A stretch of 64,000 bases of DNA from Marsupella aquatica (Eukaryota; Plantae; Marchantiophyta), in the NCBI GenBank assembly GCA_973895155.1, contig OZ316896.1, positions 10,303,525-10,367,524 of the forward strand. The letters run 5' to 3'. The number at the start of each line of letters is the position of its first letter. The stretch's first letter is position 1. Shown in pieces: positions 5,984 to 61,464 of this stretch. A program made the translations under genes and the position numbers. The notes under the pieces are model-generated. The model had not been told where the DNA came from. It made no database searches and saw nothing but the letters and a program-made list of their open reading frames with translations.

Positions 5984-6944
5984 GTATAGATTGCTATGTC
6001 TCTTTCCCGACCTTCAATACAACTTTAGTACCAGTTGAAACCTGAAGGACACCATTAGCAGAACTCCACTGATGGCCATTTTCTTCTAAAACTCCAAGTG
6101 AAATGAGATTTTTCATCATGCTGGGAATATATCTCACATTCCTCAATGTTCTTACAGCACCATCAAACATCTGAAATCTAACAGATCCAAGTCCAACCAC
6201 TTGACATGGGATTCTATTTCCCATCAACACTGAACCGTTGGAATTTGTATAAGAACTGAAAAAATCTCTCCTAGAGCAAATATGAAAAGTACATGCACTA
6301 TCTAGAATCCAGTCATCACTACCTGGATTTGACACTACGTTGAGAGCATAACCTTGACATCACAATATGTCATCATCATCGAGTAAATCTACCTCATGCG
6401 AGCTCAATGCCGCGTTAGCAGAGGCAGTAGGGACCTTTACTCGACAATCCCTTTTCATGTGGCCAGGCTTACCACAATTCCAACATGCAAGAGGCTTCCT
6501 CTCTTGCAATTTCCCTCTGGATTTAGATCTCCCCCGTGATGTAGATCTAAACCTGTTCTGCCCATTCGTGCGCTGCGCTGCTCTTCCCCTATTCACATTG
6601 AGCGTAGTGCCAGAAGAATATGATGTCTATGATTGACCCAGCTTCTTTTGAGCATCATCAGACAGTAATGAGCTCACCACCTCATAATACGAAATGGACT
6701 TCAGATCTCTATACAAGAGCACCTATTTCAAGCCCTGATATGACGGGGGTAAGGAGCTTAGCAGAAGCAAGGCCTTATCCTCATCTTCAACTTCTTTTCC
6801 CAGGTTTGACAGATCCACCGCTAGACTGTCAAACTCATCCAGGTGATCCTACATCTTGCTCCCTTCCTTGAGCCTAAGGCTCATCAAGAGAGACTTCTTG
6901 TATAGTCGGTCTGACGCATCTTCCCGGTAGTACTTCTCTCTTAA
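5984..6944 (-). pseudogene. Copia gag C-terminal part, zinc knuckle and aspartic protease
   Basis: Zinc knuckle CWNCGKPGHMKRDC; protease WILDSACTFHIC. Confidence 0.9.
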
Positions 6945-7574
6945 AACACGATTTCAGACCGAACGAGAACTATTTCCTCTAAACGAGAAGTGTATTTTCA
7001 TTTTCCGCCGAATCTCGCGAAATTGGCAGTTTTTTTCATCAAAAACGCGTTTTTGGGGAAATAATGTAATTCGTATCGGAGTTTGGATTGAAACAGCAAA
7101 TTTAATAATGATCAAAACCAATGAAATTTATGCTAACAAACATTCATATTATCAAGGAACAATTAGATCCGAAAAACTTTCTCCTCGACCTCATATTCAC
7201 GCTCTCCGAAGATATATGAAAGGTCTTATCTATAAGTCCATATCCACGTTTCGAGCCAAGTGCGATAACTGTATCGGACTCCGGATTTGAGCCACGAAAG
7301 CTTTGACCCAATCTCAGGTTTCTCAATTTTTGGATATTTACCAAAAATATTTTATATCACAGTCGATAAGAATTACTGCACGGTTCGTCAAACTTACCTT
7401 GCAGTTACCTCCGCAATTGACCAGTTACCTCCGCAAGTGACCATAGTCAACATGCCATTTTTTCAACAGCAATGCGCAGTCCGATAAAATTATCGTGAAA
7501 ACTACGGGCGACAAAAATACTAGTCGACAATACTAAGATCCTTCGGTTCATCGGTTAAATTTCAAAATTCCTAT

Positions 7575-7780
7575 CCATATGAAGAAAACTCTTCGCAATA
7601 CCAACATCAGATAAATTTATCGCTTCAATTTCAAAATTGCAACTTCCATATGAAGGAACCACTTTTGCAATACCAACATCAGATAAATTTATTGCTTCAA
7701 TTTCAAATTGCAACTTCCATATGAAGGAACCACTTTTGCAATACCAACATCAGATAAATTTATCGCTTCAATTTCAAAAC
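7575..7780. repeat. Three tandem ~72-bp subterminal repeats, each with GATAAATTTATCG
   Basis: ccatatgaagg...caataccaacatcagataaatttatcgcttcaatttcaaa repeated three times. Confidence 0.9.
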
Positions 7781-8064
7781 TATATAATTTTGCCACAATG
7801 CACGTGTGAGAATGAAATTGGAAATCCAAGAAATATACCCTTTTCTGCTATTTTGTCGTTTAGGGTGACAGCCAATCAAAAGTGGACACGTGGGCCAACC
7901 CCTCAACAGACACTATAAAAGGGCCACCGCCGATAAGTTTTTGGCGTCATTATCGAGAGTAGAGTTTTGGGAGTTGTGTTCTTGGAGCAACATTCTGTCC
8001 GTTGAGCCTTTTGTTTTCCCTGATTGCGGGAGGAATGCAAAGCCCCATAGTGTCTCGGATAGCC

Positions 8065-11000
8065 ATGTCTCAATCAGACACAGATTCACCTTCCAGTTCA
8101 GTTGAATCCTCTCCTAATCTTGTCGCTCGCTGTTTGCCAAGTCGCATACTTAAAGCTCTACCTCTCTCACAGCAAATAGTGCCCAAAATCTGACTCAGAT
8201 TTTGATGCAAGTTCTGGTTCTGAGCCCAGTGCTTACTATGTGTCGCCTAGTAAACCTGAGAAGCATCGTCACTTGAGCATTCCATCGCCAAGAAATGAGA
8301 AACTTTCAATCCCAGGTTTAGGTCCGAGACGTCGCTTCAGGCCATCCATCCCGGGTTATGGAGAGGGTATCCGGCGACCGATACGCGTATCGCAGTCGGC
8401 ATTCAAGTCGCCACATTCAACACAAGTTCAATGACCGATCTTTCAGTCTCTGGGTGAGGATCGGGACACAGAAAGACAAAGACCGATACAACGATCGGTC
8501 TTTGCATTGCCTGGACTGGATGTGCGAGCAAGCGAGGGAATTGGACTGCGAAGTCCAGACTCAGCCCTTTCTCGAATGGTCCGTGGGAATCATGGTGAAC
8601 AAGTGCTCAATTTTCCAGCAGCTCGCGGAGTCGTTGGGACTGCACGTGCGAATCCAGAATCTCCAAGTTCTCAAGGGCGGACTGTCATTGGTTCCAAGCT
8701 CCAAGTATCGAGGAGAGGTCTTAGTGGCGTTCGGGTTATGTATAGAGAGCCACGGAGTCCAATTGTGTTTTCAGATGAGTCGAGTGCATCGGAGGACGAA
8801 GATGAGGAAGGAGATAGAGAATCCGATATAATAGCACAAGTTGTGTCTGAATGTTTAGAAGGAGCTGTCGAAGAGAATAGCTATAGTCGTCTATTCAGTG
8901 CCCCTCTAAATGCGTCAAGGAGATCTATAGAGGATGGTAGCTTAGCAGAGAGTGATGCATCTATTCGCGAGGCACCTGAAGGACCCAAAAATGCAATGTT
9001 ATGAACGGATTTCAGGTTGTAGAGAAGTCAAATGAGCCTAGTAAAAAAGATAGGGACCGAATTACTAGGAAAGACAATGTGATAAATGACAAATTGAATA
9101 GAAACAAAATGAGAGAAATTCATAAGTATTCGTGTTGTGATAATTACTGTCTGCGGAATTTGGATCTGCTAACCGTGATGAAACAACGCACTTATTACTA
9201 TGGGCTATCCTACCCAGAGAAGAACGTCCTTCCAAGAGGATGTGTGAAGGGTGGGCATGCTGGTGCAAGTGGTTACTCAGTTAGCGGTAGATCCTTTTGT
9301 CGGAGTAGTTTTAAGAAATTATTTTCACTAGGAAATAATCGTCTCCAAAAAATCTCGCAGAACATGTTTTCTCGGATACAGATCGGTACAGTTTGTCAAG
9401 AAAAATCACCCGCACATCTTGGTCTCGTCTAATGGCTGGATGATTTTTTTCCAGAAATGTCGAGAGTCTCCCCAACAAGGATATCTTTCATTTACCTGAC
9501 AATTGGACAAAAACATAAGTTTTTGATGCCTTCCAGTCCGAAACTCTAATGCGCCAAGAACAAGGCATGACATATTCGTGGTTTCTTCGCATTTGGAACA
9601 AGGAGTTTCCTCGCGTGCGCATCCCCAAAAGGAGCCGTTTCTCCACCTGCGCCCCGTGTACTGAATTCAAAGCACTCCGTGACAAGGCAACACTCGAAGC
9701 AGAAAAGAGTAAGTTTCTAAACCTGTGTGTTACTCCCGATAATTTTATCGGGTTGAGTATTCATGTGCTTCTTCTTTGGCCATGTGAGTGAATATATCGT
9801 TTGAACAGTTTGAATACTGAACCTGATAAATTTATCGCTGTCACAGTTTTTCATTACGGTCGTGTGTTTGAATACTGAACCTGATAAATTTATCGTTGTC
9901 AGGGTTTATCATTACGGTCTTGTGTTTGAATACTGAACCCGATAAATTTATCGTTGTCAGGGTTCAACATTACGGTTATCATGTTTTGTCCTAAACATTT
10001 TTATTATTGTAGGAAAATTCTCAACATTGCTAAACGAGCATCGGAAGGCACAAGCAGTCGAGAGGGAGAAGTTAGCAAAGCACCGGAGCAAATGTTACAA
10101 GAGCCCGGAGAAATATTTAGGCATCTGTATTGATGGAATGGATCAAAAGAAGACAGAGTTACCTCATTTTATTTGGTGTCCGAAGAATATGGATGAAAAG
10201 TATTTCATCCCCGTACACGTAGTGGGTTGTTTGATCTTCAACAAACAATTAAGTTCAAATGTTTTTTTGAACTATCCAAATATTCACAATGATAGCAACC
10301 TGACCATCCACGTTATCCAGCATATTCTGAATACCTGGGAAGGTCTGCTCCCTCCAGTGCTTTACCTCCAGCTTGATAACACAGCTCGGGAAAACAAGAA
10401 TAAATATCTTATGGCATATTTGAATATGTTGGTGGAGATAGGTGTTTTCCAGAAAATAAAGGTTGGTTTCCTATTGGTGAGGCACACCCATGATCAAATT
10501 GATCAAATGTTTAGCAAGTTTTCTTCAAAATTGAACAAGCGGAAAGCTTTCCGATTGGACACTCTTTCAGCAATCATAGAGGAATCCTACAATCCTACGG
10601 CAAAGATATTTTTCGTCGACGAGGTTGCCGATTTCAAGAAATTTGTGTCAGACAAGGATCAAGCAAATGACAAGGATATGGATGGTCAGGTTCTACGTAC
10701 TCTCCACGACATAAGTGCTCAAAAACAATTTTGGATTACTAGAGTACTTGAAGATGGAAGTGCTCGGTCCGTATTCCATGCCAAACATCTTTCAACGACA
10801 ATCGATTGGGGGGAGACGGTGGATTTTGTTCGGTACATTCCATCATCTGGAATGTGGGTCGCACCACAAATAGCATTGAAGTCGGCCACGGGAGCGACAG
10901 GAGACAATGAAGAGCAAGAGAATGATGCTGAGGAACAAGATGAGCGAGCAACTCAAAGTTATTTGTCAACTCTTCAAAAATATCGAAGAGCAATTGAAGA

Positions 11001-11621
11001 TGGATTCAATTACTTTGATGACGCAGATCGTCTATGGTGGGGTCGTTTTTTGATAAACAAAAAGAAGTGATTCAGCACCACCTGAAACCTGCACAATGGA
11101 GTTTTGATTGGAGTTGGCCCAAGGTAAACGTATAGAGAGAACTTCCGAGTAATCCTACGGAAGCAGCAATGGAACCTAGCTTGGTTGATAAAGTAGCGGG
11201 TGTGAGGACAGTCATGTATTCCGGAAGTCGAAGAAAAGTCACGGAAATTGGAGACTTCAAGGATCTAGAGGTGAATACTAAATTTGCAATGATATGTGTA
11301 GCAGCCCATCAGGATCCCAAGGGAAGACCATTCTGGATGGCAAAAGTGACTGAGATTCTCACAAGAATTAATGACATCCCGGAGCGGATTAAAATCACTT
11401 GGTATGTAATGGATTCGGAGGAAGAGTCTGCAATTGAAGGCAGATATTATCTGGAGAAAGAGGCTTCGTCTAGCAAAGTACTGGAGGATGAATTGTCCCT
11501 ATCAGAAACTACCGTTTATGCGTATAACTTTGCGTTATTGGCAAATAGTACTCTCCCTATACAAACAAGACGAATCATTCAAAATGCAATGGAGACTGTA
11601 GTCGTTGATAATCGAAGCTAG
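8065..11621 (+). pseudogene. Sola-like/DUF7869-type DDD/E transposase of element 1, disrupted
   Basis: SCCDNYCL, FSTCAPCTEF, ICIDGMDQKK, LYLQLDNTARENKNKY, VRHTHDQIDQMFS. In-frame GT-AG intron 9709-10012. Stop at 9430 and frameshifts near 9000, 9450 and 11050. Start position approximate. Confidence 0.8.
9808..9978. repeat. Three tandem ~58-bp repeats in the transposase intron, each with the element-1 palindrome
   Basis: tttgaatactgaacctgataaatttatcgttgtc...cattacggt repeated three times. Confidence 0.9.
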
Positions 11622-11948
11622 TTTCAGGTTTAAGTTATAATGGTTATCGTTCCCATGAATATGTACAGTGGTTATCGTTCTGGGACTATGTACTCCGCAG
11701 CTATAATGATGTTTTTTTTAAAAATAATTTCAATTATAAACCAGTTAGAGAATACAATGCTGTCCGATAAGATTATCAACAACTCCATTCCCCCAGCAGG
11801 AACACCGCGACAGTCCGATATATGCAAAGTCCGATAAATTTATCGCATTAATAAATGTGACAAAGGTTCTTCCTCATGGAATACAGAATCCGATAAATTT
11901 ATCGACAACTTCATTGGTGATTGACATTATCCTAACGAGCACACGCAA

Positions 11949-14900
11949 CTAATCTAATAACATGTCGTTGAGATCATCCTCATTTGGTGTTCTGGGAGGC
12001 TCTTCCTCAGTTTCTTCTTGTTCCTCTTCGGTCTCCTTCATGACCTCAACTACGTAAGTCGATGTCCCGAGAACACCCAATTGGCCTGCAATTGGTGGTT
12101 GAATCTCATGACCTTCAATGTCGTGCCCTTCAATCTGGGATTCTTCATATAAATTCCAGTTTGACTCCAAAATCATGATCCGGGATTTTACAAAATCAAT
12201 CTGCGCAGAACTCTTATCAACAGCACAACCCTGGCGAGAATTGAGGAGCATAGCAGCTAATATCGATCCGGTTCCACAACAAAGATCAATAACCCAATCC
12301 TCTTTCTCAGAGAAATGGGAAACAAACCAAGCCCCCAAACCAACAGGCTTCTGATATGGGTTCACAACAAATCCCAACGGATCAACGGACTTCTTGGTTA
12401 CACATGGAACCTTGATGATATTGACGCGAGACTCATCCGGTTGGAAATTGTACATGTTCATGTTCCGAATGCCTTCCTCGCTATAGAAACCTATCGACCA
12501 GTTCTCAAAACCCCACGCCAATCGAGCTCCAACGGGACGCTCATGAATGTTAGTCTTCTCCCAGATTCCAGCCTCGACCCCACAGTTGCATACACTCTCC
12601 AGTGCAGACATCACCATATGCGTTTGTTGTAGTGAAGGGATCACAACAAACCTCCACTGCTTAGCGGTCGTCATCTTTGAGAAACTTGTCAACATGTCTA
12701 AAATATCCTTTTCTGTGAAGGCCACTTCATCAAACTCCGAACCAGGAGCATTAAAACCATACGGAATATCCGCAACCGCAAGGGTGTAAGCCCTTGGCTG
12801 AACAAAAGAATCCAAAATTCGAACATCACCAACATGGAGATAGTAGGGAAAAGAATCCCCGTCTGCATTTTTCCATGTTTGTTCAAACGCTTCTGCTCTG
12901 CCCTCGCCTAAGGACCTCAGCCTATTGTACTTATCGATTGCAGCAAGCACAAAATTCTTAAACACATAAGGGATTTCAGCTGAGGGAACAATAACCTCCC
13001 CCGCAGAATTATAAGTGACAGCCGGAATCACTTTGCTTTTCCTTTTTGAATTAATCTTCAGCTGTAAGAATGTCAGACACATCTACAGTTAGAATAGCGT
13101 GAGATGAATGCTAAAGCCGATAAAAATCTCGCGATGGAGCACGCTAGCCAATAGATGGAATCGCTTAGAAACCAACAAAGGAATTCTAAAGCCGATAAAA
13201 ATCTCGCGATAGAGCATGCTGTGAGAGGAATGCTTACCGCGTCACTCAATTTCTCCGCCCATATGCCAAGGACCAAGACATCTGTTTTGTTGGGAAACAT
13301 TTCTCTGCATGTTGCCCAATCTGGCTGACCAGATATCTGCAAAAATAGTTTCTTCACCTTGGCAAGATTTTTTAACTTCTCACCTTCCTTGTGCATTTGA
13401 TCCAAAGTGATCACCTTCCCGATAACCCTATTCAAGAGACGCTTGACATGCTCCTTATTTGACAGTCCTTGGAGACCTCGAAATGAATTTAAGTTGAGGT
13501 CACCAGCAAGTTTATTCATTTTAATCTCCCTTACCGTCAAAGGTTTTACCTTTCCCTTTGCGTTTGTCATTGCCACAATTTTTTTGGGTTGTCCTAAGAC
13601 AATACCTTTCTCCCACATCTGGAAAATCTTCTCCTGAAGATCCCAAATTTCACCTGTTCGGAAAGCAATTTGGAAAGCCGGATCATGTTTGGCCATGGAG
13701 TCACGAACTCCTGGCGTGTACTCCATCATGCATTCTTGACAACATGCTTCGCGGACATCTTTAGTCGAGCCCACACCCATTTCAAGGAAAATATTGTGAC
13801 AAGCGTGAACTTGGTCAATTTTAGTCATGTTCTTCCGATACTCCTGGTCATAGTTATGCTGGAAGCCTAACTTTCGGACCTTGGATCTCGTAAGCCCAGC
13901 GTAAACCCAAGCTTCCAGCTCACCATATATTTGCTTTCCGTACATTTTAAACAACTCGGACTTTGCCCGAGCAGCATGATTCCCTCCAATAATTCTATAC
14001 TTCCATACCCTTGACTTCAGGATGTCCCAATCTGCGGTTGTGGGACAATCCTTCGGATCCACACACAGCACGAACGGGGCACTAAAGTTGGTGGGGTTTT
14101 TCATGAGAAGTATCTTGATATTTTCCACATGCAATCTATCCACTGGTCTAATCAAAGTTGACAAATCCCCCTCCTCATCAAATATGAGATTGTCGACATG
14201 CAGAAGCACAGTTGTCCTTTGCACCCTTCGTTGCATCAGAAGACTGAGCTCTGCCTTGATCGCGTCCGTCTCATACATCGAAAGAGCCGTCTCCTCCTCC
14301 TGATCAGCCTACAAAAGCGTTGCAAATTCAATTAAGGAAAGAAACTGCAAGATTTTTATCGGAGTTCGCATTTGTTCAACATAACTCCACAATCCGCAAT
14401 TCAGGAAATAAACAGCGAGATTTTTATCGGATTTCGTATTTGTTAAACAGTACAACGATGTAGTACTTACCAATGGCGCCGCAGGAACCGCGACTGGAAC
14501 TGATGGAATTGACAGAGCTCTATCTACTTCTACAGCCACCGTCTCAGTCCTGCCAGTCCTCTTCCTCTTTGTGCTAAGTCCAGAACCAGATGGCCCGGAT
14601 CCCTCGGATCCTTTACTTTTGCTTGGTTTAACGTATGGTCCTCGACGGTTGCCCCGGCCTCTCCCACTACCGCCAGTTTCCTGGCTCTTCTTCCCACCGT
14701 CAGAGGTTCCCGCGGCATCTCCCCTGCCGCTACCTCTCCCTTTCCCTTTTCCACTTCCCGAAACCCGACCAGAAGTTGTAGGTTCGTCCACATCAATATG
14801 TGTAGAGGATTGCAATGGTTCTTTCCGCCCCGACATTTCATCGACATTAGAACCACCGCTGCCACTTGAACCTGGTTTCTTGAAAACAATTTTGCGGACA

Positions 14901-15439
14901 GGTTTGAACTCTTCACCCACAAGTCTCTTGTACTCTGCGTTCACCCTTGGAAGCATGATGGCATCACAATCTTGCACATACTGGCCGATCCAAGCCGAAC
15001 CCATAACATTCATCTCTCTTGCTGCCCGAACGTCGGCAACAAGGGGATCTTCTGGATAACTGTCCATCGATTTCTCATCAAAGTTATCAAGAGTAACAAT
15101 GAGAGATGTGAAACCCTTGCGCCCACACATTGTCAAGAAACTAAGGCCCTCTGTCAACACTTTTCCCTCCCCGTGGCCAACCATGAACTCGACGACGACA
15201 ACAGCAATGACAGGGCCATACGAAACATTAACCTTCGCCAATTTTTGCAACTGGACCCAAAGGATTGGGGTAGCACAGTCTTCAAAACCCGTGGACTGTA
15301 ATCTAGCGTCACGGAAGTACCATGACTTCTTGATACACTTGACCTCTTCACAAATGTCTTCACTTGTCCAAATTGCATTGGTGAGGCTTGTCATGAGACT
15401 TTCTGCCTCAACAGATCCACTCTTTCCACTAGCAACCAT
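11949..15439 (-). CDS. Three-exon ParB/Srx-fold + beta-class N6A/N4C DNA methyltransferase fusion, ~1050 aa (exons 15439-14471, 14308-13238, 13061-11949)
   Basis: Both introns (14470-14309, 13237-13062) are GT..AG, phase 0 and join the ORFs in frame. ParB-like RPVDRLHV...YRIIGGNHAARA. MTase motif IV ADIPYG precedes YQKP and motif I VIDLCCGTGS, the beta permutation. Acidic tail. Confidence 0.82.
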
Positions 15440-15621
15440 GGAAAAGTCTGCAAATAAACAAATTCCAATGCAAAGAGCGATAAAATTATCGCCGCCAATC
15501 TCACAGCACATGTGGACACGACATCTCATCACACAAGGACAAAGAGACCGATAAAATTATCGCAAAAGTGAGCCTTCTTTAAATTGACGACCGAGTGTAC
15601 AGGTCGAAGAATCAGCTACGG

Positions 15622-15664
15622 AACCCTAAATCCAAAACCTTAACCCCTAAACCTAAACCCTAAT
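15622..15664 (-). promoter_or_regulatory. Telobox-like (AAACCCTA-type) cluster upstream of the ParB-MTase gene
   Basis: aaccctaaa...aacccctaaacctaaaccctaa, upstream of a probable 5'-UTR intron (~15449-15600). Confidence 0.45.
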
Positions 15665-15713
15665 CATAGTTGAACCTCACCAGAGCGAAGCGTTCGATCC
15701 GCTTCTTGGGCCA

Positions 15714-16373
15714 TTAGGGAATATGAGTGACGCGATGATCATAAGCCCACATCCAATGGAAATCAACTTCACCAGTCTCAGGATTCACTACTGCTACTGA
15801 ATACCGGCGTGACGGAATGTCACAACAAGCATTTGTGCAGCATGGACAGATCTCACCATTGGCAAGGACGTTCGTCCACAGGCAACTTACATAGATCAAG
15901 TTAAAGAGCCCACAGACCGGCTGGGGGGGGAGTTGTTGAATCTTGTATGAATATAGTTTCCCACCAGTGTCAATAAAAAACTCGATGGCAAGAGGATTGT
16001 CCAGCTCGTCAATCACATCCTGAATCTCATCGAATGCTCTACGTCTGTTGTCAGCATAGAATTCTGGCTCATAAGCAAGATTGCCCTTCACAACATGACA
16101 GCAGTGGAGTATAAAACGTCTTACTGCACCGGTTTTCAGAAAGAGTAGGATAACTCTTCTAGAAAATCCAACATATCTATCCCACTGAATATAAATTTCT
16201 CCCCCTACCTGATCTACGTAGAAGTGAAATGCGTTATGGTAAAACGGTTTTACTACCAACCTGCATATCTTTAAAATTAGTGACTCATCCAGCCTCCTTA
16301 GCTGGTCCAGCATGGCTCCATTCCCCCATTCTGGAGGATTCGGGTAGGGTACAAAAATGCGTCGCTCGAGCAT
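15714..16373 (-). CDS. Hypothetical cargo protein of element 1 (219 aa, Cys-rich C-terminus)
   Basis: Open 660-nt ATG ORF inside the element, co-oriented with neighbouring cargo genes; no recognised family. Confidence 0.55.
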   Translation of the reverse strand: MLERRIFVPYPNPPEWGNGAMLDQLRRLDESLILKICRLVVKPFYHNAFHFYVDQVGGEIYIQWDRYVGFSRRVILLFLKTGAVRRFILHCCHVVKGNLAYEPEFYADNRRRAFDEIQDVIDELDNPLAIEFFIDTGGKLYSYKIQQLPPQPVCGLFNLIYVSCLWTNVLANGEICPCCTNACCDIPSRRYSVAVVNPETGEVDFHWMWAYDHRVTHIP

Positions 16374-16665
16374 GGCCTGATCACCGAATAGAAATCAGGA
16401 ATAAATTTTGGAGAACATACTAATTACAATTCTACAAGTTTCATCCAACTTTACAGTACCTTGTATAACGGGCTGTGAAGCCAATGCACTTGTCAGCTAA
16501 TCGTCCGAAGAGGCGTTAACAAATACACTCTGGACCACACAACCCGAAGTCAGGGGAGGGAGAGTCAATTATATTCAAAGTGTTTCTTTACAAGCACCCA
16601 AAATCGACTAGAGGAATGAGGAGTGCGATAAATTTATTGGATGTTCGCAGCAATGCCTCATCCAC

Positions 16666-17214
16666 TCAGACTCGTCCATGCCATGCAAGAATTGTTCGCT
16701 TCCCGCTTTCTCCAAGATTTATCCAAACTCTACGAAACTGATCTAACTGCTCATACGAAAAGCACCCAAGCATATCTATGGGAGGGAGGAAATGAGTTTC
16801 CTCTCGGAAGACCCTAGCAATATGTAGGTTTGAGAGAAGGTCGGCATTAGGAATGCTTGCGAGCATTTTGTTTATGTCATTGATCTCACGGACTGCATAT
16901 TTCAATAGCGCCCAAAATCGTGTACCAACAACAAGATGGTTCCATTTCTTGGAGGTGGCTCCAAGACAAATGATTGTTCTCATTCGAGTCAGTCGTTCTT
17001 CTGGTAGAAGTTTTAGGTCAAGGCCAAGGTGTTCATCTTGTGTGCAAGACAAGGCTAGGAGGGGCCAAATGTGAGATTCAACAAGTTGATCGGGAAGTCC
17101 ATTCAACAAACTTCCGCATTCCACACCGGGCACTTTTCCTCGAATATATTTCCTACGCTCGTGGGCTGAAACGGATCCCATCTTTGCAACGATTAGATTC
17201 ACCGATGCAGCCAT
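16666..17214 (-). CDS. F-box-like cargo protein (182 aa)
   Basis: LLNGLPDQLVESHIWPLL...LGATSKKWNHLV; homologous to the three ORFs at 60.8-62.6 kb. Confidence 0.7.
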   Translation of the reverse strand: MAASVNLIVAKMGSVSAHERRKYIRGKVPGVECGSLLNGLPDQLVESHIWPLLALSCTQDEHLGLDLKLLPEERLTRMRTIICLGATSKKWNHLVVGTRFWALLKYAVREINDINKMLASIPNADLLSNLHIARVFREETHFLPPIDMLGCFSYEQLDQFRRVWINLGESGKRTILAWHGRV

Positions 17215-17408
17215 GAAGCAGAGCTACCAAAACCACCAATAAAAATACCTTCAATCACCAGGTGTAACTGAACACATCCACAGTACCAACCCTGCACGAC
17301 AGCTTAACGATTAGGACTCGTGACGTATTATATTCGCTGCGCAAGGGTAGGACTTGTTTATTTAAATATGTCCTTCCAAGATGCGCCTCAATGAAAAGTT
17401 CGAAACAC

Positions 17409-17738
17409 TCATCGTGAAAGGTTCACCCAAGGGTCTTCGTTCCAAATCTTACAATAGAAGTGAGCCTGTTTGTGGTACTTGTTGTCAAGACGACGACAAC
17501 AATAGTTACAAGAAAACTCCAAAGAATGTAAACACGCCGTTAACATCAACCTCAAACGAATTGGAACTCCTGCATCATTCATTCCGCAGAATTCAATGCG
17601 GAGAGGATTCTGCTTATCTCCAGGATCAGTACCACCCATCCACAATGCTCCTATACCGATGGGGAGAACTTTGAGTCGCACGAGTCTCTTGTACAACCGG
17701 CGTGCACGTTTGACACAATTTTCAAGGAAGACAGCCAT
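17409..17738 (-). CDS. Possible small cargo ORF (109 aa)
   Basis: ATG ORF co-oriented with the other cargo genes; no homology recognised. Confidence 0.3.
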   Translation of the reverse strand: MAVFLENCVKRARRLYKRLVRLKVLPIGIGALWMGGTDPGDKQNPLRIEFCGMNDAGVPIRLRLMLTACLHSLEFSCNYCCRRLDNKYHKQAHFYCKIWNEDPWVNLSR

Positions 17739-18651
17739 TTGTCACAATACCTGTTGTCCACGGAGTGCAATCGACCTTCCATTGTGCCTCCTAAACTCGG
17801 CAACACTACGACATCAGAGATGAAGATGAGTCTCCAAATAAAACAAAGGAAAATGATTCTCACAGGAAGATGCGATAAGTTTATCGCACTCCGCATTCGA
17901 ATTGAAAATATGACTTCCTCAAACACCTAAGCCCTGAATTCAATCTTTCACAAAAATGACAACTCCGATAAATTTATCGGATTCTCAATTGCTCCTCTTT
18001 CCATCAAAGGAATGAAGACTCCGATAAATTTATCGGAATGAAGGCAACACCTCTCTAAACACTGGATCAAATGATTGCAACAGAGGAATGCAAAATGCGA
18101 TAAATTTATCGCAGTCCGCTCGGATCTGGACATTTTACACTAAATGACTAGTTAGTCTTACATGGAGAACTTGAACAGGAATAGCTGTTCCGATAAATTT
18201 ATCGGGTTTTTGGTAGAAAGAGTCAAATCGCTTGGGAGGAATGTAAGACTTGATGGGAGTTTGGTATTCGCTCTCAATCAGGAGATATTTGCTCTGGCGA
18301 AAGCAAACATTTTATGGGCAGCCCGCTCCTCTTTATATAGGAGACGCTCTAAACCATGGTTAATTTCCCCTTAACCATGGTTAATTTTCTCCTTTACCTG
18401 GGTTAGTGCGTGGTCGTTCCTGGATTACGCGGTTCGGACCAAGTTACTCGCAGTTCGGACTTTTTCACTAACGGAATGTAAAACCCGATGCACGTATCGC
18501 TCCCTGCATTCCCGCGGCGATGCAATGGAGGAAAGTGGCATTTCGGAGAGTTTTTTCCAATTTTATCGGTCATTGCATTGCCTTAGAAAAAAAACGGGAT
18601 CGGGCTAAATGAGAACTCTGACACACTTTTCGGTCGGTCCGAAATCGTGTT

Positions 18652-19135
18652 TTAAAGCCTTGAACAGTGACGCGCAATCCGCATAATCATCCAACTGCTT
18701 GATGATATGCGGCTTGAGATATAGCATCACTGCATTGACAGCAATTACCTGCTCCTGTCTCCACTGTCTCACATAAATCTCCTCCTCTCCATCATACTGC
18801 TCTCGCGAAGAGAGCAGATAAGCTAAGCCCATGTCCCGTAGAACACCCTTCACTTGCTTCTCCCACAGCAAGTAATCAGTACGACCATCGTACTTCTCCA
18901 CCTCAAACTTCACTCCTCCAAATCTAGCCATCTCCCTCTTCTTCCCTACTACCGATAGCTCTGGTAGTAGTACAACTTCCTCCAATGCACGCCTCACCGG
19001 TGATCGTACCGGTGATACAAGTTCCTCCTCAAATGGTAACAGCTCCTCCTCAGACTCTCCGTCTGACCGTTGCGATCCTGAAGCTCCACCGACGCCAATT
19101 CTTCCAGTATCCTCCGAGTCACTCATATGAAACAA
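18652..19135 (-). pseudogene. Copia gag N-terminal part
   Basis: KFEVEKYDGRTDYLLWEKQVKGVL. Removing 6945-18651 plus one TTAA rejoins the frame as ...SLFKALREKYYREDASDRLYKK. Confidence 0.9.
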
Positions 19136-50702: not shown

Positions 50703-53700
50703 TCACCGCTCTCTTGGCTGCCAGTCTGATTGACCACGTTGCTTCTTTGCCATAAATGGTCTAAACCACTCAATGCCACATACATGAGTAAGAAGGTTTT
50801 GTTCATTCACTGGTCCTTCTACCACATCTGTAACAACTAACCCCATATGGACGGGATAAACATCCAGGTCTGAGTCGTCCGGCCGTACCAACACATAACA
50901 GCCCTTCACAACATCAACCCTAGGGTTAAAACTCTCAGGAGGTTTATCTTTTGCTGGTCCCACATAATCCACTGTTGCCTCCAACTCACATGCCACATTT
51001 TGATATTCTGGTGGAACGTGCTCTCTCCATATTGATAAAGGCCAAAACCCGTATTCCAAGTTGTGTGCACCTTCAGGTTCATGTTGCACCTGCTCACCCT
51101 GTAGAGTATCTACAATGTCATTCCAATAATTGATGAGAGTTGTCCAACGTCGCTTTGGTTCTTCCTCTTTTGTTCGCTTTAGAATAAACTCAAAGAATGA
51201 CACATGCTTCTTCAACCCTGTCAGCACTTCAGGAAGCATTTTCAACTCCATCATTGGTAGCCGTTTGGGCACCCCAATTGGGATGTGAGGAATTTTGTCA
51301 TCTTTCCATGACCACATTTCAATACCTTCCTTGGGTAACCATCCCTGATCAGTTGACTTCATTTTGTATTGGAAGCATGGCATACTATCATGACGAACAT
51401 AGAACCTAAACAACCTGGGTTTTAAATGCCCCACCAATGCCTCAGGGCCCTTCAACATGAATGGAGCTAAGTAGTTTTTGAAATCTGGGACCTCCTGTAG
51501 AAAATGTGGGACTGCATTGGGTGTCCTTGCTCTCATGAACAAGGACATTAACTCAGGCAATGAGTATGTGGGGTTATGCATCATAGACTCTGAAAAATGC
51601 CCGAACATACCGTCAACGTCCTCATGAGTATGCCCAACCACCATAAAACCAAGATGAACCTCTTCAAACACCTCCCTTGCCGTCAACAATGACAAATAAG
51701 CCATCATATATCTGTTCTTGTTGTCTGAGGCATAATTATCCAGTTGTAGCTTCAATACTCGTGGAAGGGGCCTGAACTTTGGTGCCTCAGGTGCTGCATC
51801 ACAATGTAACAATCTCAGAATGCTTTTAAACAAAACCCTAGTCAGACCCTAAACCCCAATTTAGGGTTTAGGGTTTAAACCCTATTAATGAAACCTTGGC
51901 TAGGAGGAGCAACAACTACACAAAGTAGAGTGTCAGTGTGTGTGAGCTTATATTATTAAATAATAATAAATTAAAGGATTGTGAGTAAAGTACCTAGGCT
52001 TGAGATGTAGGCAATGTCATCCTCAAATGCTCTAAGGACGCTTGCCTCCAAGATATCTGCTCTCCCAAAAAGGAGGTCTTTAAAAAGACTTGTCGAGTCT
52101 GGCCCCTCCACAAGTGATTTGATCATTGGATTTGGGTTTTCCAACATCCTTAGTATTGAATCAATTGACCCAATAGTGATGTTGACATCACCTGGCCACA
52201 CTCCAACATGATATTGGGCTATGGCCTTGGGACCATGACCATGAGTAAGGATACCAGTGACAGTAATTGGGAACTTTTGGGCACCATCCACATGCTTAGG
52301 ATTGAAGGGCATTCTTGGGAGAGCTGTCTTTGAATGATCCATCTTATCATGAATAAGGCATAACACTTCCTTTGGACGATGGATGGACTCATATCTCCAG
52401 GTATGATAGCACATTCTTTGTTGTGTGTGGTCTTGGTGATGTTCCTCCTCGTCACGCCTTAGGCCCTCTAACTCTTCCTTAGCTCCTGTAAGGTTTGCTT
52501 TCCGTTGAAGCAACTCACTACAAGTTGTACACTTTGAAAAGTTGTTGCCCTTTTTGTGACGTGAGAACTCCCTGAAATACATCTGATGTAGATGACTCAA
52601 GGTGGGTTGGGAAATTGGAGGAAGACCAGCCTCCTGGATGACAACATTAACCCTGTTTCTAATATTCTCCCAAGTAAGATTTGTTGGCAATTCCCTCAAA
52701 ACCATCCTTGTATTATCTGCCATGGTTCTCAACTTGGCTGGATGATGATCAGCTGCCTCCTCAATAATCTCTTTCATTGACATGAACGCTTGAGATACTT
52801 TCTCGGACATACGCCTTTTTCCAGCATTACCATGGGTACCTATGTTCATTCCAGCCATCACAGTCTTCTTCAAGGCATAAAATTGAGTCTTTCCTCTTGA
52901 ATGAATGATTCTCCATGCCTCCAAGCACAATACTTTGCCCTCCACTGCTAGAATCCTTTCTCCAGTACCCAAGTGTATTGTATTTTTAATAGCCTTGATT
53001 TCCTCCTCCTTGCGCTCCGCAAAAGATTTTGACCACCACTTTTGCCTAATTGCCATAGCCAAGTTGCGGTCCAAATATTGGCAACAATGTTCACTACAAC
53101 AGTCCTTAGTGTTTATCAACAACACATCTTGACCTGCCAAAGATGTGTCTCTTCTAGATGTCTGGGAAGATGGACTCTTTCTTTTCCTACTTTTATGGAC
53201 GTAGGACCGCTTGCCACTTGTTGGAGATGTGTTCCCTCCCACAGCTTGCCTGATGTTGTGGAAAGACAACAAGTTGCCATCCTTGGCAATGAGTTGGTCC
53301 ATCGACCAAGCTTTTAAGCAATCTCTATGCTTCAGATGATCTATGGTAGCTCCCTCGACAAAATCGTTGATCAGAATTCCCACATGTGTATTCCCAAGGG
53401 TGACATCCCCAAGCTTGACTATAGGATCTAGAACATGTATAGTTGCCACTGCAAATATCAACTTGTTCTCATCCACCACCTTTACAGGCATGCCCATCCA
53501 CAAGGCCTTTGGTAAAACTACTTCCACACCAGACCGACTCTCATTATGGTTGTTCCCATCAGAATTTTGATTGACTGGATCTTGATCATCACCAACAGTG
53601 CCAAACACATCCTCCGATTCCATGGGAGCTTGAAAAAGCTGATTCCTTTCCCATACAAGGTAACCCCCAATCATGTCCTTCAAAAGTTCGCCATCTTCGC

Positions 53701-53902
53701 ATAGAATGGTCTCGTCAAAAACTTCCTCCAATAGAAGAAGAACTCTGTCCGCCCCAAGAGGAACATTGTGACAAACCCTGGAAGGATCAAGACTTATCAC
53801 GCAACCTTTTCCAACCTGTTTCTCACGTATGCCTATAATTACTTGTCCGCCTTCCCTGATCCAGACTGTCGATGTCACCATAATAATTATGATCCTGCAC
53901 AT
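50703..53902 (-). CDS. Sola-like/DUF7869-type transposase of element 2 (exons ~53893-51994 and 51793-50703)
   Basis: DCCSEHCC, FSKCTTCSEL, LIHDKMDHSK, LKLQLDNYASDNKNRY, VGHTHEDVDGMF. Phase-1 GT-AG intron 51993-51794 joins in frame (ISSL-A-PEAPKF). No stops in either exon; 5' exon not identified. Confidence 0.82.
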
Positions 53903-54280
53903 CAGAGAATATCACTGTAAGTGTATAGTCCTGTCACGTCCGTCAATTTCACTGCACTGTCCTGTCACGTCGGTCAATAAGCAGAATGTAGTCAATGCAC
54001 TGCGCTGCACGCGACTGGTCGCGTGACCCTAGAGGTACCACACATACCGGCAACAGACTATGCATGGTCCGTCAGTCATGTCAAATGAATGAGAATGACC
54101 ACAATCGATTACGATCAATCATTTCACATCCACTCAGAACAAATGAGTGGACAGTCAATAACTACTGAGGACAGTAGTCCTAATAAGCGCCAGTAAAACA
54201 TCCGTGAACTGCATTGTCCTGTCACAACCGTCAATAAGTAGGCAAAATATAGTCAATGCACTGCCATGCACGCAACTAGT

Positions 54281-54576
54281 CGCGTGACCTTAGTCAGAGG
54301 GTGTAGGGATAACAGGGTCTACGACGTAGAAGCTAGAAGGCTAGGCCCAAACTCTAGCTCGTAATTGGTACTTCATAAGTAAGATACGATTGCGCGTGAG
54401 ACAGGAAGATACAATTACGGATCTAAAGGCATGTCGCGTGACCTTAGTCAGAGGGTACAGTGTCTACGACGTAGAAGCTAGAAGGCTAGGCCCAAACTCT
54501 AGCTCGTAATTGGTACTTCATAAGTAAGATACGATTGCGCGCGAGACAGGAAGATAAATTACAGATCTAAAGGCAT
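54281..54576. repeat. Tandem duplication of ~145-150 bp
   Basis: cgcgtgaccttagtcagaggg...gatctaaaggcat twice. Confidence 0.85.
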
Positions 54577-55050
54577 CACACATACCGGTAAAGATAATGC
54601 ATGGTCCGTCAGTCATTTCAAGTGTGAGAACGACTACAATCGATTACGAACAATCATTTCAACTCCACTTAGGAAAAATGAGTGGACAGTACCAGTTTAC
54701 AAATGAGTGGACACTGGACAGTCAGTAACTATTGACCTTCATAAGAAATCTCAGTACTTCACTAGCAATCAGTATTCCCGGGGCAGTCGCCAAACGTGAA
54801 ATTATAGTCATAATTAGAGGACAACTGAAATTCCCGCCAATTCTAATACACGCCAGTCAAACGCGCACCCTCTTCTAGAAACCACTATGTACAATGACTA
54901 GTGGAGACTAAACAGTATAAAGCATTGAGATGATCTCTATTGCTCATTCCCCCACGCATTCCACTTTCTGGCTACTGGATAATCTATTCGCACATCAACT
55001 CTCTCATTTCCAATTCTTAGTCTCGGTCAGCATCTCTTGTTTGAAGGGCG

Positions 55051-55593
55051 ATGACTACTCCGCTGAGCTCGAAGAATGAGGATGTTTCGACGGACGATTC
55101 AGAAGGTTTGACGTATCGAATTCGTGGTACTCCTTACAGAATGTGTCAGCGATGTAATATAATGTTTATGGTGACTAAATCGGGTCAAATGTTTTGTGAG
55201 AGACGACATTGTTCGCCACATTTGTCGATGGAAGATCAGATGGAGACCAATCCGACAGAGATGACTACAAAGATGGCATCAGGGGAGAAGTTAAAGGGCA
55301 AAGCCCTCGTGGAATCCGTTTCGAGGGGGGAGAAGTTGAAGGCCAGAGCATGCGTCGAATCCATTTCGGGGGAAGCAGCACCAGACGCTAAGACAGTCAA
55401 GAAGGAGGCCAAGAAAGTGGACGCACCAAAGAAAAGGCAATTAGAGATGAACAAAGATTCTGATTTGTATTACAGAAAGAGCAAGCCGAGAAAATCTATG
55501 GACGTTAGGACTTGGGCAAAGGAAGAATTTCTGGATTCAAGGGAATCCACACCAGACACCGATGAGTGGATGCCTTCATCTTGGAATGACTGA
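55051..55593 (+). CDS. Hypothetical zinc-ribbon protein (180 aa)
   Basis: RMCQRCNIMF...FCERRHC; internal GEKLK..VES duplication; tataaa at ~54917. Confidence 0.6.
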   Translation: MTTPLSSKNEDVSTDDSEGLTYRIRGTPYRMCQRCNIMFMVTKSGQMFCERRHCSPHLSMEDQMETNPTEMTTKMASGEKLKGKALVESVSRGEKLKARACVESISGEAAPDAKTVKKEAKKVDAPKKRQLEMNKDSDLYYRKSKPRKSMDVRTWAKEEFLDSRESTPDTDEWMPSSWND

Positions 55594-55796
55594 CTCGATC
55601 GAAGTCAACAATATTTTGAGTAGTCGAAGATTAGAACTACAGATTCAAGAGTAGTTCAAGTTAGAACTTGTTATAGATACTGTGTAGCTTAAATTCCTGG
55701 ATAGTGCTAGTGGATATGGATTCCACATCCGAAGTCCTTCGGGATCGATGTAACCATTTTTGCAATCAAGGAAAAATCGAGATTCCTCTGACTGAC

Positions 55797-56745
55797 AATT
55801 TGCTAGGCTGTCGACTACAATAAACAATATCAAAAAGACCTGAGATAAATTGGTTCACGCGACTGTGCGCGTCATGAACTACATGTGTAACCAAAAACAG
55901 GTCATCCTACTAACAAGTTGAGATCAGGCAGATCTGAGAAATAAAGGGCGATTACGTCTAAGAGTGCAGAGCTTTCGCTAACCTCTAAAACATTAACGCG
56001 ACCGGGCGCGTGATGAAACGAAGACCTCGGTTTTAAAATATATTTCTGGCCAATTCGCTGGGCAGTCGACTACAATAAACAATATCAAGATAAATTGGTT
56101 CACGCGACTGTGCACGTGACGAACTACATGTGTAACCCAAAAAACAGGTCATCCTACTAACAAGTTGAGATCAGAAAGATCTGAGAAATAAAGGGCGATT
56201 ACGTCTAAGAGTGCAGAGCTCTCGCTGACCTCAAAACCATTAACGCGACCGGTCGCGTGAATCAGAACTCGGTTTCAAAATAGATTTCTGGCCAATTCTC
56301 TAGGCTTTCGACTACAATAAACATTATCAAAAGACACGAGATAAATTGGTTCACGCGACTGTGCGCGTGACGAACTACATGTGTAACCAAAAAACAGGTC
56401 ATCCTACTAACAAGTTGAGATCAGAAAGATCTCTGAAATAAAGGGCGATTACGTCTAAGAGTGCAGAAATTTTGCTGACCTCTAAAACATTAACGCAACC
56501 GTGCGCGTGATGAAACGAAGACGTTGGTTTTAAAATAGATTTCTGGCCAATTCGCTAGGCTATCGACTACAATAAACAATATCAAAAGACATGAGATAAA
56601 TTGGTTCACGCGACTGTGCGCGTGACGAACTGCATGTGTAACCAAAAAATAGGTCATCCTACTAACAAGTTGAGATCAGGAAGATCTGAAAAATGGACCT
56701 CGATTACGTTACGTTTTGCTAGGCCGTCGACTACAATAAACAATA
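55797..56745. repeat. ~245-255-bp tandem array (~3.7 copies), two element-2 palindromes per unit
   Basis: Units start near 55797, 56052, 56294 and 56549; contain cacgcgactgtgcgcgtg and acgcgaccggtcgcgtg. Confidence 0.9.
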
Positions 56746-58179
56746 GCAAAACGTACGGACAACTATACGCGTACGCCATACAATTATAGACTAGAGAATT
56801 CATTCGGATCCTCTACTAGTACTTCTGATACATTGCTTCTATATTGGACTTGAAACACGGATTGATCAAACTCGAAGTGAGAAATTGGACCATAACTTCA
56901 TTGACTCAATTCATGCATTGAATGCGTGATTTAAGGCAACTACTCTCCTCATTTATTGTGGAATTAATGTTGATTGATACTTACAAGTTATTCAGTTGCG
57001 TGTGGTCTCAGCAATGTTGGTGGCAACCCTCCGATGTTGGCGGAAACCCTCCTCCCAGCCAAGCCTCTTCCTTCCAGCGTACCCTCCTCGTCCCAGCCAA
57101 CTAAGCCTCCTCCTTCGAACTCCAATTTCCTTGAGTATCGGGATCGAATCCCACCACCAGAGAATGACAACTTGTTGATCGTATCAAGATCAAAATCCTC
57201 GACCAGACTGTGATTTCAGAATAGCCGCTCTTTGTTGGTCCGCTAGAATGCTTCGATGAATGAGGCAGACTATGGAGGTTCTAAATGTTTGTCGTCTCGC
57301 TTCGTCGCAACTCTCCCGCTTGATCGGATGTGCTCTCCCCAAGATTGAAGGTGATACAACAAGAACTGCGCCAGCGTTGCTTGAATGAGCTCCGCCTCCG
57401 ACTGGAATAGTCGAATGATCCAATCTGCTCCACCTCAAATGTGCCTTGGATCAGCCTCCGCTGAGAGCCCAGCTAGTATCCTGGTAAGGAGAAACTGAAA
57501 ATGAAGAATGATCCGTGAGCAATGAGATCAGTCTATTGACTCCATGGAGGATGTGTTCATCTGGACTCGATTTTGATTTTGAAAATTGGTTGAGTCTCCA
57601 GTCGTGAGAATCATTGTACAGGATTGATTTTGAATATCGGTTCTCCCCGACCGTGAGAATCGTTTTACGTTGTTTAGAGTAAGGGTTTGAATTGGCAAGA
57701 TAGAGAGTGGAGTACGGATCCGGATCCAACGGTCTCCACTACCAAAATGGAATGATTTTGAAGTTTGCCTCCACTACGTGATGGAACGATCGTGAGAAAG
57801 TTGTCGTTCGTTCACATTTTGGATTTGAATTGGCAGATATAGTGAAGATACGGATCCGGATCCGGATCCGGGGGTCCCCACTAACAATCTTTCGCAGTTG
57901 CATAATTACCGGTTTAAATTTCAAATTGGCCATCAAATAGAAATCTCCTTTAGTACGGAAAATCAAAAGGAATGCGGTAATCTTTTTTTCACGATTGCAT
58001 AGTTTGTTCAGTCGATGGTGGAGTGTACGGAGATCATCTGGAACCTTCCTGTCGCTAGGTTGTTATTAGGGTTATGCTAAAACAATACCCTAATTAGTCC
58101 TTCCTTAGTGTCGGCGCCCACGGTCTCGAGTTCATTGTTCATTGTTGTTGTTTCTCGCTCCCTAGACTTTTGCATGCCT

Positions 58180-58441
58180 GCTCTTGTCGCTCTCGCTCTC
58201 GTCACTCTCGCTCTCGCTCTCGTCGCTCTCGCTCTCGCTCTCGTCACTCTCGCTCTCGCTCTCGTCGCTCTCGCTCTCGCTCTCGTCGCTCTCGTCGCTC
58301 TCGCTCTCGCTCTCGTCGCTCTCGCTCTCGTCGCTCTCTCTCTCGTCGCTCTCGCTCTCGTCGCTCTCTCTCTCGTCGCTCTCGCTCTCGTCGCTCTCGC
58401 TCTCGCTCTCGCTCTCGCTCTCGTCGCTCTCGCTCTCGCTC
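58180..58441. repeat. (CTCGCT)n/(CTCGTCGCT)n microsatellite
   Basis: Direct reading of the sequence. Confidence 0.95.
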
Positions 58442-59474
58442 CTGCCCTGGATTTCATTTTTGTCGTTGTAGCTCGTTCGTTGTGGTCAGGTGCTTGTCGG
58501 CACGTTGCAGCTCTTAGTAGTTGTCGATCGTTTCGACCAGGAGCTCGTTGGTGCATTGCAACTCGCATTTACAGCTCGTATTCACTTCTAGTTTGCTAGT
58601 TCGTTGCAGCTAGCTTTTTGGGAGTGCTTGTATCAGCTCGTGTCAGCCAATTTTAAGCTCATATCATCTCGATCAACGTGTTTCAGCATTCAGGTTTGTT
58701 TCACCTCTTTGAATCTTCAGGTTTAGTGCGCTTTTATTCATGCTCAGTTTGCCTATCCATAGCTTTGATTGTACTTCTGAAAGAGTCTTTTTAACTCGAC
58801 ATAATGAGCTCCTTAGCATTAAGCACATGTTATTCAATTGGTGGCAGCAAAGCTCTATGTATAGAAGTATAGAAGCTGTGTTGTTGTTGCTTAGCATATT
58901 AATATCTTTAATCTTATATTTACTTTCTGGAATGCCGCAGCAACGTGTTCAAGTGCTTGGACGTCAATCTCTCAGACGATTACATTAATTTTTCAGAATT
59001 CAGGTGTAATTTCTACATTTTTTGCTGGTGTTGATTGTGGTTTGCTAAAATTTCTCTTGATTGTTAAGCACAATTTTCATAATGCGGTTTGTTTGTAAAC
59101 TCAAATATGTGTGAATCATACAAACTCACTAATTAAAATACAACCTGAATCGTCTTAAGTAAGTCATTACAAACTTGCACGCTGTGAATTTAATCATATA
59201 AACTCTCATGTTATGTGAATCTCATTACACTGAATCCTTTAATTGACAAATACAACCAGTAGACTACTAAATTGAATCATCTTAGCTAGATCATTCTCTA
59301 AACTTCTAATATATAATAGTTTCACAATGACAGAGCTCAAACATCTGAATTATTGTAAAGTTCATGAATGAATACAAATGAATGATTATGCTTCCTCGGA
59401 TTTCCTTGTCCGTACGGGTCAGTAATCACAATTGTATCACTGTATTATCCTATTGTCCAAAAGTTGTTTCAGCT

Positions 59475-60712: not shown

Positions 60713-60847
60713 CGAAGAAACATTTATGATTTCACATTGTGACCCGAAAAAATCAGTCTCAAAGAATTGTTTATGCATTCTGATTTGTAGACGCGACCAG
60801 TCGCGTGAAAATAATCTCTGGGATATATCATTTGGCTGAAAAGAGTC

Positions 60848-61399
60848 ATGGGCGAACCTGGTCTGGAGAGCTTCAGATATCTATGCCCAATATTTGACGT
60901 TTTGGACAGAAGCCAAGATGGTCTACTTGCGGGATATTATGTATTTGTTGAAACACTACTACCTGGACTTCCAGATTTCATTGTCACGGAATTGATATGG
61001 CCTCGGATCCAGGAGACTTTTAATTCCTCGACTAATGCAGGAAATTTCTCAATAAAGGAATTGGATGAGTTTGTAGGACTATCTTCGGTGTGTCGCAGAT
61101 GGCGCCACCTTGTTGGGAATACCTATCTTCTGGGTGTAATCAAGTTGAGTTTATTAGATTTGGCTTTCCCAAGAAATCCTACTAAACCGATCGGAAATGA
61201 GTCTTTCTCATCGACAGTTCAAAGTTTCTTCCAGAAATACCCAAGAATTAAATTCATGGGGTCAATGTCCAGAGATCTTAGGGAACTCTTCACGAAGACT
61301 TACGATGCTCTTCACCCTCTTGAAAAATGGAAATTTACAGTCAGATGCCACGAAGTTGGATACCTTGAGGGTGACATCTACGCTTTTAAGGAATTCTAG
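60848..61399 (+). CDS. F-box-like cargo protein 1 (183 aa)
   Basis: LLPGLPDFIVTELIWPRI...LSSVCRRWRHLV. Confidence 0.72.
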   Translation: MGEPGLESFRYLCPIFDVLDRSQDGLLAGYYVFVETLLPGLPDFIVTELIWPRIQETFNSSTNAGNFSIKELDEFVGLSSVCRRWRHLVGNTYLLGVIKLSLLDLAFPRNPTKPIGNESFSSTVQSFFQKYPRIKFMGSMSRDLRELFTKTYDALHPLEKWKFTVRCHEVGYLEGDIYAFKEF

Positions 61400-61464
61400 T
61401 TAACTTACGTGACGAAGCGCGTCGTATGTCTTCTAACAATGTTTTGTGATATGATAAAAGCAGG

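Follow-up and report, generated by a model that had tools for sequence, protein, structure and literature searches.

ParB-like accessory genes have been reported from transposons of brown and red algae. The Ectocarpus transposon Sola1-1_Ec32 carries a 1104-aa ParB-like/N4C-N6A methylase gene, and its authors propose that the product binds and modifies the element's own DNA (PMC12477816). In Bostrychia and further red algae, the Plavaka accessory gene PAG3 is a ParB-like cargo whose proposed target is inverted repeats set in tandem arrays; the same preprint, in the part available, names VANDAL as the sole transposon for which binding and modification of the element's own sequence are known, and treats the ParB algal elements as proposals (bioRxiv 10.1101/2025.02.11.637652). 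The idea of self-modification is already in print, as a proposal, for red-algal and brown-algal transposons. The motifs of the VANC proteins of Arabidopsis VANDAL lie in introns and in intergenic and terminal non-coding DNA, where they are amplified by tandem repeats (PMC5735166), and bacterial ParB and Noc recognize palindromic sites of 14-16 bp, with a specificity that is altered through a few residues (PMC7383237). Here we describe element 1 (6945..18651), an 11.7-kb DNA transposon in a 64,000-nt stretch of DNA from the liverwort Marsupella aquatica (contig OZ316896.1; the whole stretch is hereafter the window, and coordinates are window positions). It carries a DUF7869 transposase gene, an opposite-strand gene for a ParB-fold protein fused to a methyltransferase (ParB-MTase) and a family-specific palindrome that recurs through its non-coding DNA. 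We consider it probable that a ParB-fold dimer binds these palindromes and thereby tethers the fused methylase to copies of its own family.

Element 1 resembles Sola1-1_Ec32 in joining a Sola-type transposase to an opposite-strand ParB-methylase of similar size (1050 versus 1104 aa) and differs in that a palindrome is mapped here which changes from family to family, no site being described for Ectocarpus in the available text. With PAG3 it shares a ParB-like cargo paired with inverted-repeat or palindromic sites. PAG3, as far as the available text describes it, differs in travelling with an EnSpm/CACTA transposase, in having ParB fused to a 2-oxoglutarate oxygenase and in leaving the methylase on a separate gene; its arrays adjoin the gene, whereas the sites of element 1 are spread over ends, introns and spacers. 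A preliminary description, made from the sequence alone, had likened the palindromes to VANC targets, and the site layout fits that likeness (PMC5735166): both are family-specific short motifs enriched in non-coding DNA and in tandem repeats. VANC motifs, however, are asymmetric words of 8-9 bp, and VANC causes loss of 5-methylcytosine (5mC), whereas the element 1 motif is palindromic and its protein has a bacterial fold and its own methylase. The features shared with ParB/parS, Noc/NBS and RK2 KorB are the N-terminal plus DNA-binding fold, the 14- to 16-bp palindrome and, to judge by the parts of that literature available, divergence of specificity between paralogues. Bacterial ParB differs in possessing the motif GERRxRA, and element 1 in its fused methylase and its eukaryotic, intron-containing gene. 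Unlike ParABS, element 1 has no visible ParA gene (no family match among the 11 element 1 frames scanned) and no evident role in segregation.

Scanning the window for the 14-mer CGATAAATTTATCG at no more than 2 mismatches gave 19 matches, all within 7263-18204, compared with a mean of 0.14 and a maximum of 1 in 100 shuffles, which set the chance level. The central two bases are variable, giving the site CGATAA-NN-TTATCG, often lengthened to 16 bp by an added C/G. This free-spacer pattern, again at up to 2 mismatches, has 25 sites inside element 1. Three weak matches outside it (61668, 63881 and 63930) all fall in element 2, a second transposon at the right edge of the window, and none was found in 38 kb of flanking DNA. 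Gene models make 68% of element 1 coding, and 24 of the 25 sites are non-coding (binomial P 2e-11, a value that is overstated because the sites are not independent). The remaining site, 8379, has 2 mismatches and lies in the predicted transposase coding region. More than half of the sites (13/25) are separated from each end by over 1.5 kb, and neighbouring sites are at most 1825 bp apart. The 25 sites stand in 20 unrelated flanking contexts; tandem duplication of 71-bp and 58-bp units accounts for some copies.

The sites are distributed as follows. Six palindromes (7263, 7482, 7609, 7681, 7752 and 7931) form a left cluster at 7263..7944, three of them in a 71-bp tandem repeat. The predicted transposase intron (9709..10012, + strand, GT..AG) holds four (9737, 9824, 9882 and 9940), three of them in a 58-bp tandem repeat, and by the pattern scan the spacer between the convergent genes (11622..11948) holds three (11765, 11832 and 11891). 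Both predicted introns of the ParB-MTase gene (- strand, GT..AG) contain degenerate sites: 13118 and 13193, with 3 mismatches each, in intron 2 (13062..13237), and 14348 and 14416, with 4 and 3 mismatches, in intron 1 (14309..14470). A putative 5' untranslated region (UTR) intron (15448..15680, - strand, GT..AG) carries palindromes at 15478 and 15549. The right cluster (17873..18204) consists of five palindromes (17873, 17966, 18022, 18098 and 18191), each with unrelated flanks. All 18 perfect or near-perfect copies listed in the preliminary description were recovered at their positions; that list had overlooked 7263, 7931, 8379 and 11765 and had placed three of the four degenerate sites 1-2 bases off. 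Its claim that flanking copia and host DNA lack the palindrome holds across the 38 kb of flanks, and its claim that the main exons lack it holds apart from 8379. Every predicted intron of element 1 does contain sites (4/4), as it had said, but this is not a rule of the class, as element 2 shows below.

The ParB-MTase gene forms a three-exon frame of 1050 aa, opposite in strand to the transposase gene and without stops. Exon 1 (14471..15439, -) encodes a conserved domain of about 180 aa and of unknown family, followed by a low-complexity linker; it is 32% identical to the related loci L001, L002 and L005 introduced below, and it gave no Pfam match and no atlas hit at 0.9 or above. Exon 2 (13238..14308, -) encodes a ParB/Noc-fold N-terminal domain and a helical DNA-binding domain, and exon 3 (11949..13061, -) a beta-class N6A/N4C methylase domain (DIPY ... 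DLCCGTGS). At the matching exon 2 boundaries, homologous contigs have AG in L001, L002, L003 and L005 and GT in L001-L003. The preliminary description had named the cargo a ParB-MTase, and these models, with their N-terminal and DNA-binding parts and an amino-methylase of the beta class, agree with that name.

The ParB assignment rests on the fold, because sequence searches barely show a ParB likeness: Pfam named no ParB family on exon 2 of element 1, a sequence-profile search of solved structures with exon 2 gave no significant match, and the HTH_ParB profile matched 2 of 72 homologues (best E 3e-4). Homologues have LGHWRAL in the place of MGHGRTL in Bacillus subtilis Spo0J (E 0.75, weak alone). 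The AlphaFold model of exon 2 has a mean confidence (pLDDT) of 88.8, and its ten best Foldseek matches are all Noc/ParB, at E 6e-6 to 2e-4. The structural alignment to Noc 7nfu spans both domains, with a TM score to the target of 0.58. VIA-align gave Z 10.0 for PadC (root mean square deviation [rmsd] 2.9, 98 aligned), Z 8.5 for KorB (rmsd 12.1, 171 aligned) and Z 5.8 for the KorB DNA-binding domain (rmsd 3.7, 109 aligned), the last being moderate support for a helix-turn-helix domain. A two-copy model scored 0.41, versus 0.00 for the best of 3 controls, with an interface through the N-terminal domains that includes residues 109-112 and 157-161; runs agreed in at least 54% of contacts, at pLDDT of at least 66. 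The score set as the mark of a homodimer was attained by 21 of the 30 solved pairs and by none of the 23 single chains, and the score of our model may be a memory of solved ParB dimers.

The methylase motif DIPY, of the D/N/S-P-P-Y type, precedes the S-adenosylmethionine-binding motif DLCCGTGS, and the profile matches M.RsrI and CcrM. Both catalytic motifs are recognizable in the uninterrupted frame, and many homologues, like element 1, retain the methylase motifs. CcrM was the closest fold match of exon 3 (E 8e-12), with N4C enzymes close behind: the scores of N6A enzymes (CcrM and M.BceJIV) and N4C enzymes (N4CMT and PvuII) lie within about 2 orders of magnitude. The aspartate in the catalytic motif leans to N6-methyladenine (6mA), a rule with exceptions. 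The closest named protein relatives come from Riccia, Ceratopteris and Chara, which points to a non-seed plant as the probable host, and in Riccia sorocarpa a transposase (R1sor_010795) and a ParB-methylase homologue (R1sor_010796) have adjacent locus tags. Viral contigs yielded no relative of the ParB exon and none of the transposase. Some other ParB-methylase fusions, whose methylase belongs to a different group, are described in the available text of PMC4738411, and ParB is not mentioned in the available part of a preprint on N4-methylcytosine (4mC) in Marchantia (10.1101/2021.02.12.428880).

Element 1 itself lies in a copia gag region. Sola-type transposons have terminal inverted repeats (TIRs) and a 4-bp target duplication. 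TTAA occurs at 6941-6944 and at 18652-18655, a TA duplication fitting as well, and the left end with its TTAA (6941..6976, +) is identical to the right (18620..18655, -) at 30 of 36 positions. Contigs joining 6940 to 18652, that is, the empty site, occur in 4 of 4 public runs, and many variant contigs in these runs cover the whole element; element 1 is therefore a mobile multi-copy family. The transposase gene (8036..11621, +; PF25273, E 1.7e-48) is frameshifted and has stops in this copy, its start codon being inferred, and other family copies show small indel differences behind 8188, 8993, 9443 and 11045. Its acidic motifs are GMDQ, QLDN and HTH..DQ, with D43, D121 and D163 nearly or fully invariant among 25 sequences. 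We take DUF7869 to be the Sola-type transposase. This is consistent with the gene content of the Ectocarpus element (PMC12477816). Three further open reading frames (ORFs) occupy 15714..17741 (-), with palindrome 16626 between two of them and one (16666-17223) weakly F-box-like; related ORFs occur in element 2 (tblastn E 2e-25).

Among family copies, the spacer at 11625-11950 has 22 substitution places and 5 indel places, none of them in the three palindrome cores (42 of 326 bp; P 0.043 for substitutions and 0.020 with indels). This gives our reading modest support, since the test hides variants below 5% and those near contig ends, a limit that counts against it. The top 40 differences over the whole element mostly separate this copy from nearly all others and fall outside the selection test.

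Taken by analogy with bacterial systems, the fold match likely supports palindrome binding, the sites of Noc, ParB and KorB being palindromes of 14-16 bp in the available text (PMC7383237), and we hold it quite likely that the ParB domain is the binder. Each helical DNA-binding domain of a dimer would read one half-site of 6-7 bp, as in ParB/parS and Noc/NBS. Sites would accumulate at ends, in introns and in spacers, partly through tandem duplication, and because they would do so wherever coding does not forbid it, no part of element 1 would be farther than about 1 kb from one. The tethered methylase would then likely write 6mA or 4mC locally. Given binding by the ParB domain, self-methylation that counters silencing seems rather likely by analogy, and the likeliest benefit would be that the family can still be transcribed and can still move despite silencing by host 5mC, a service that VANC performs for VANDAL.

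Related elements have palindromes of their own. Element 2 (50703..64000) is cut by the window edge and comprises a DUF7869 transposase gene (-), F-box-like ORFs and a ParB-like ORF. Its palindrome, ACGCGAC-NN-GTCGCGT, occurs 27 times between 54009 and 63958, mostly in 189- and 255-bp arrays; 26 copies are outside coding intervals and the remaining one is probably intronic. The distant ParB-like ORF (62648-63826), with GGQHT, gave an hhalign E of 0.0016 at a probability of 16%. Perfect variants ACGCACC-AG-GGTGCGT stand at 49878 and 50126, and these suggest that element 2 extends left to about 49,250. Outside the window we compared seven metagenome loci found with the ParB alignment (L001-L007) and four transposase loci from prokaryote assemblies (L008-L011). 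A palindrome of 14-16 bp was present in 7 of the 8 ParB loci (six of the seven metagenome loci and L010): CGAGAC-NN-GTCTCG in L001 and L003, CGAGAC-GG-GTATCG in L005, the asymmetric CGATCC-AA-ACATCG in L002, TCATGA-NN-TCATGA in L006 and TCATGC-TA-GCATGA in L007. L004, a 1.1-kb contig that is nearly all exon, has none. Homology-supported exons of the metagenome loci contain 1 of 50 sites, where 27 were expected. Identity among the sister ParB proteins is 28-85%, and the predicted site differs from one protein to the next. Speculatively, specificity might depend on exon 2 position 210, which is P in element 1 and L002, H in L001 and L003 and N in L006 and L007, and on position 274. In L010 a DUF7869 transposase accompanies a divergent ParB gene in intron-rich, eukaryote-like DNA within a bacterial assembly. 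The palindrome of L010, ACTCAA-NN-TTGAGT, occurs in two unrelated arrays of 42/43 bp (L010:2006-3143 and 12408-14801, G001:C41), to which every one of the 12 perfect matches of that 8-Mb assembly belongs. The right array of L010 also shows a 385-bp higher-order repeat.

Several further observations weigh against ParB-directed self-methylation. The patterns for the metagenome loci were chosen per locus after looking. In a blind scan the palindrome was recovered in element 1 (19), element 2 (17), L001 (12), L003 (7), L006 (5), L010 (18) and L009 (5), with shuffle maxima of 2-4, but L005 and L007, with 3 copies each against shuffle maxima of 1-2, were marginal, and the asymmetric site of L002 was missed; four host segments gave nothing clearly above shuffles. 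Across 7 loci, half-site distance correlates with the distance between ParB proteins (Spearman 0.83; P 0.008 by permutation), so that on sequence comparison motif similarity tracks ParB similarity, but the transposase is co-inherited and confounds this, and because of shared descent covariation alone cannot separate ParB from transposase; among L001-L007 a transposase trace, a tail, was seen in L003 only. In element 2, the element's own motif is absent from the intron of the transposase gene. The arginine-rich CTP motif of ParB is GERRxRA, according to the available text (PMC7333895); element 1 has GGNHAARA instead, within the wider pattern GGNH(A/G/S)A(R/C)A, and G109 and H111 are nearly invariant among 25 homologues. 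CTP-driven loading and spreading are doubtful because of this replacement, which weakens that part of the interpretation offered in the preliminary description while leaving the ParB/Noc fold and the element-wide non-coding sites in place. Given this change in the CTP motif, a large number of fixed sites may stand in for the long-range sliding of bacterial ParB. L010 has a methylase tail of degenerate appearance (profile E 0.09), and methylation may therefore be dispensable.

That tail, in a locus with large arrays, fits another account as well, in which ParB-MTase binds the palindromes in order to repress its own element as KorB does, sparing the host damage, or to bridge sites so that the element is folded and its ends are helped to pair, with methylation secondary. 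KorB ranks with the best structural matches (Z 8.5), the sites flank both likely promoters, and in bacteria the spreading of ParB shuts down nearby genes and ParB bridges DNA, as far as the available text goes (PMC7333895). We nevertheless find this account unlikely, though a serious competitor as to the outcome: element 1 and many homologues have preserved their methylase motifs, the high copy number of the family in the runs suits an activator at least as well, and the intronic placement matches VANC targets, as those are described in the available text (PMC5735166). The palindromes might instead belong to the transposase, for end recognition or for transposase-driven self-activation. They cluster at both ends (11 of 25 within 1 kb, and 12 of 25 within 1.5 kb, the zone that also holds transposase sites); L009, a 2.5-kb contig on which no ParB was seen, has an array in its transposase intron, a weak point against ParB; and run X3 contains one contig in which 7940 is joined to 17857, a possible short non-autonomous derivative with both end clusters kept, although its 28-base side makes it unreliable. 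Transposases and TnpA are sequence-specific activators of their own families, but their binding is terminal and the TnpA motif asymmetric, in the available part of that preprint (bioRxiv 10.64898/2026.08.24.746577). The TIR of element 1 lacks the palindrome and is not repeated inside the element, where any further TIR-like copy has at least 5 mismatches in 18. L008, a contig with a transposase only, carries asymmetric repeats of 17-30 bp on both sides of its gene, near the gene ends (356-385, 501-530 and 4070-4099), which are candidate transposase sites; neither L008 nor L011, both with little non-coding DNA, showed a palindrome or a ParB. What discriminates most strongly between ParB and transposase is the pairing of palindromes and ParB with an unrelated transposase superfamily, Plavaka, in the text available (bioRxiv 10.1101/2025.02.11.637652), and we judge transposase sites to be quite unlikely. 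It is very improbable that the sites arose neutrally from tandem duplication or gene conversion, or that they serve as RNA hairpins or as host transcription-factor sites. Some sites do lie in tandem units of 58 to 75 bp, and the copies in element 2 and L010 are mostly in arrays, but element 1 has 20 unrelated flanks, the two unrelated L010 arrays have only the palindrome in common, and the 38 kb of flanking sequence contain no site. A different word in each family with the same 6(7)-2-6(7) geometry is predicted neither by a host factor nor by drift.

Simpler origins of the repeats were also considered and rejected. Chance is ruled out by 19 matches against 0.14 expected, a pure tandem-repeat origin by the 20 unrelated contexts, and derivation from the TIR by the absence of the palindrome from the TIR and of TIR repeats inside the element.

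Other features of the window were recorded alongside these analyses. Telobox-like AAACCCT(A) repeats occur in element 1 within the putative UTR intron (15620-15660) and in element 2 within the intron of its transposase gene (51830-51885), and the F-box-like ORFs common to both elements (16666-17223 and 60815-62596) gave weak Pfam hits, with tblastn E from 2e-25 to 1e-4. In or beside the copia element there are two copies, in opposite orientation, of an insertion of about 700 bp (2722-3414 and 5286-5975) and three of a 345-bp element (833-1176, 4441-4785 and 22302-22646). Four related segments, one of them inverted (25284-26712, 34703-36134, 42493-44127 and 44830-46224), lie inside larger duplications and contain the ORF HRIAEQKRRKRIKE, presumably of basic helix-loop-helix (bHLH) type. 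The nearest atlas clusters of the ParB exon (13241-14308, -) are fungal DUF3723 proteins (score 0.95, 166 of 256 features in common). DUF3723 proteins are carried as cargo by Starships. The match suggests that DUF3723 is ParB-like, and Starships may carry such palindromes.

Our literature search found no element-wide, family-specific (intronic) palindromes in Sola ParB-methylase elements, although the supplements of the algal papers, outside the search, may show such repeats. A ParB-methylase frame, a defined site and a set of sister proteins allow cognate and non-cognate binding to be set out as a matrix. We put forward, tentatively and with slightly less than even confidence, the wider idea that eukaryotic DNA transposons adopted the bacterial ParB/parS module as a private address code, by which 6mA or 4mC would be written on self alone to oppose silencing, in hosts from plant-like to animal-like; each family would evolve its own palindrome and a matching ParB domain, filling every non-coding gap. 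If true, this would be a second, independent strategy of self-recognition in the arms race between transposons and hosts, and a source of 6mA/4mC in eukaryotic DNA. Nature would also have supplied a family of DNA methylases that can be re-targeted, and the transposons would encode an epigenetic writer programmable by sequence.

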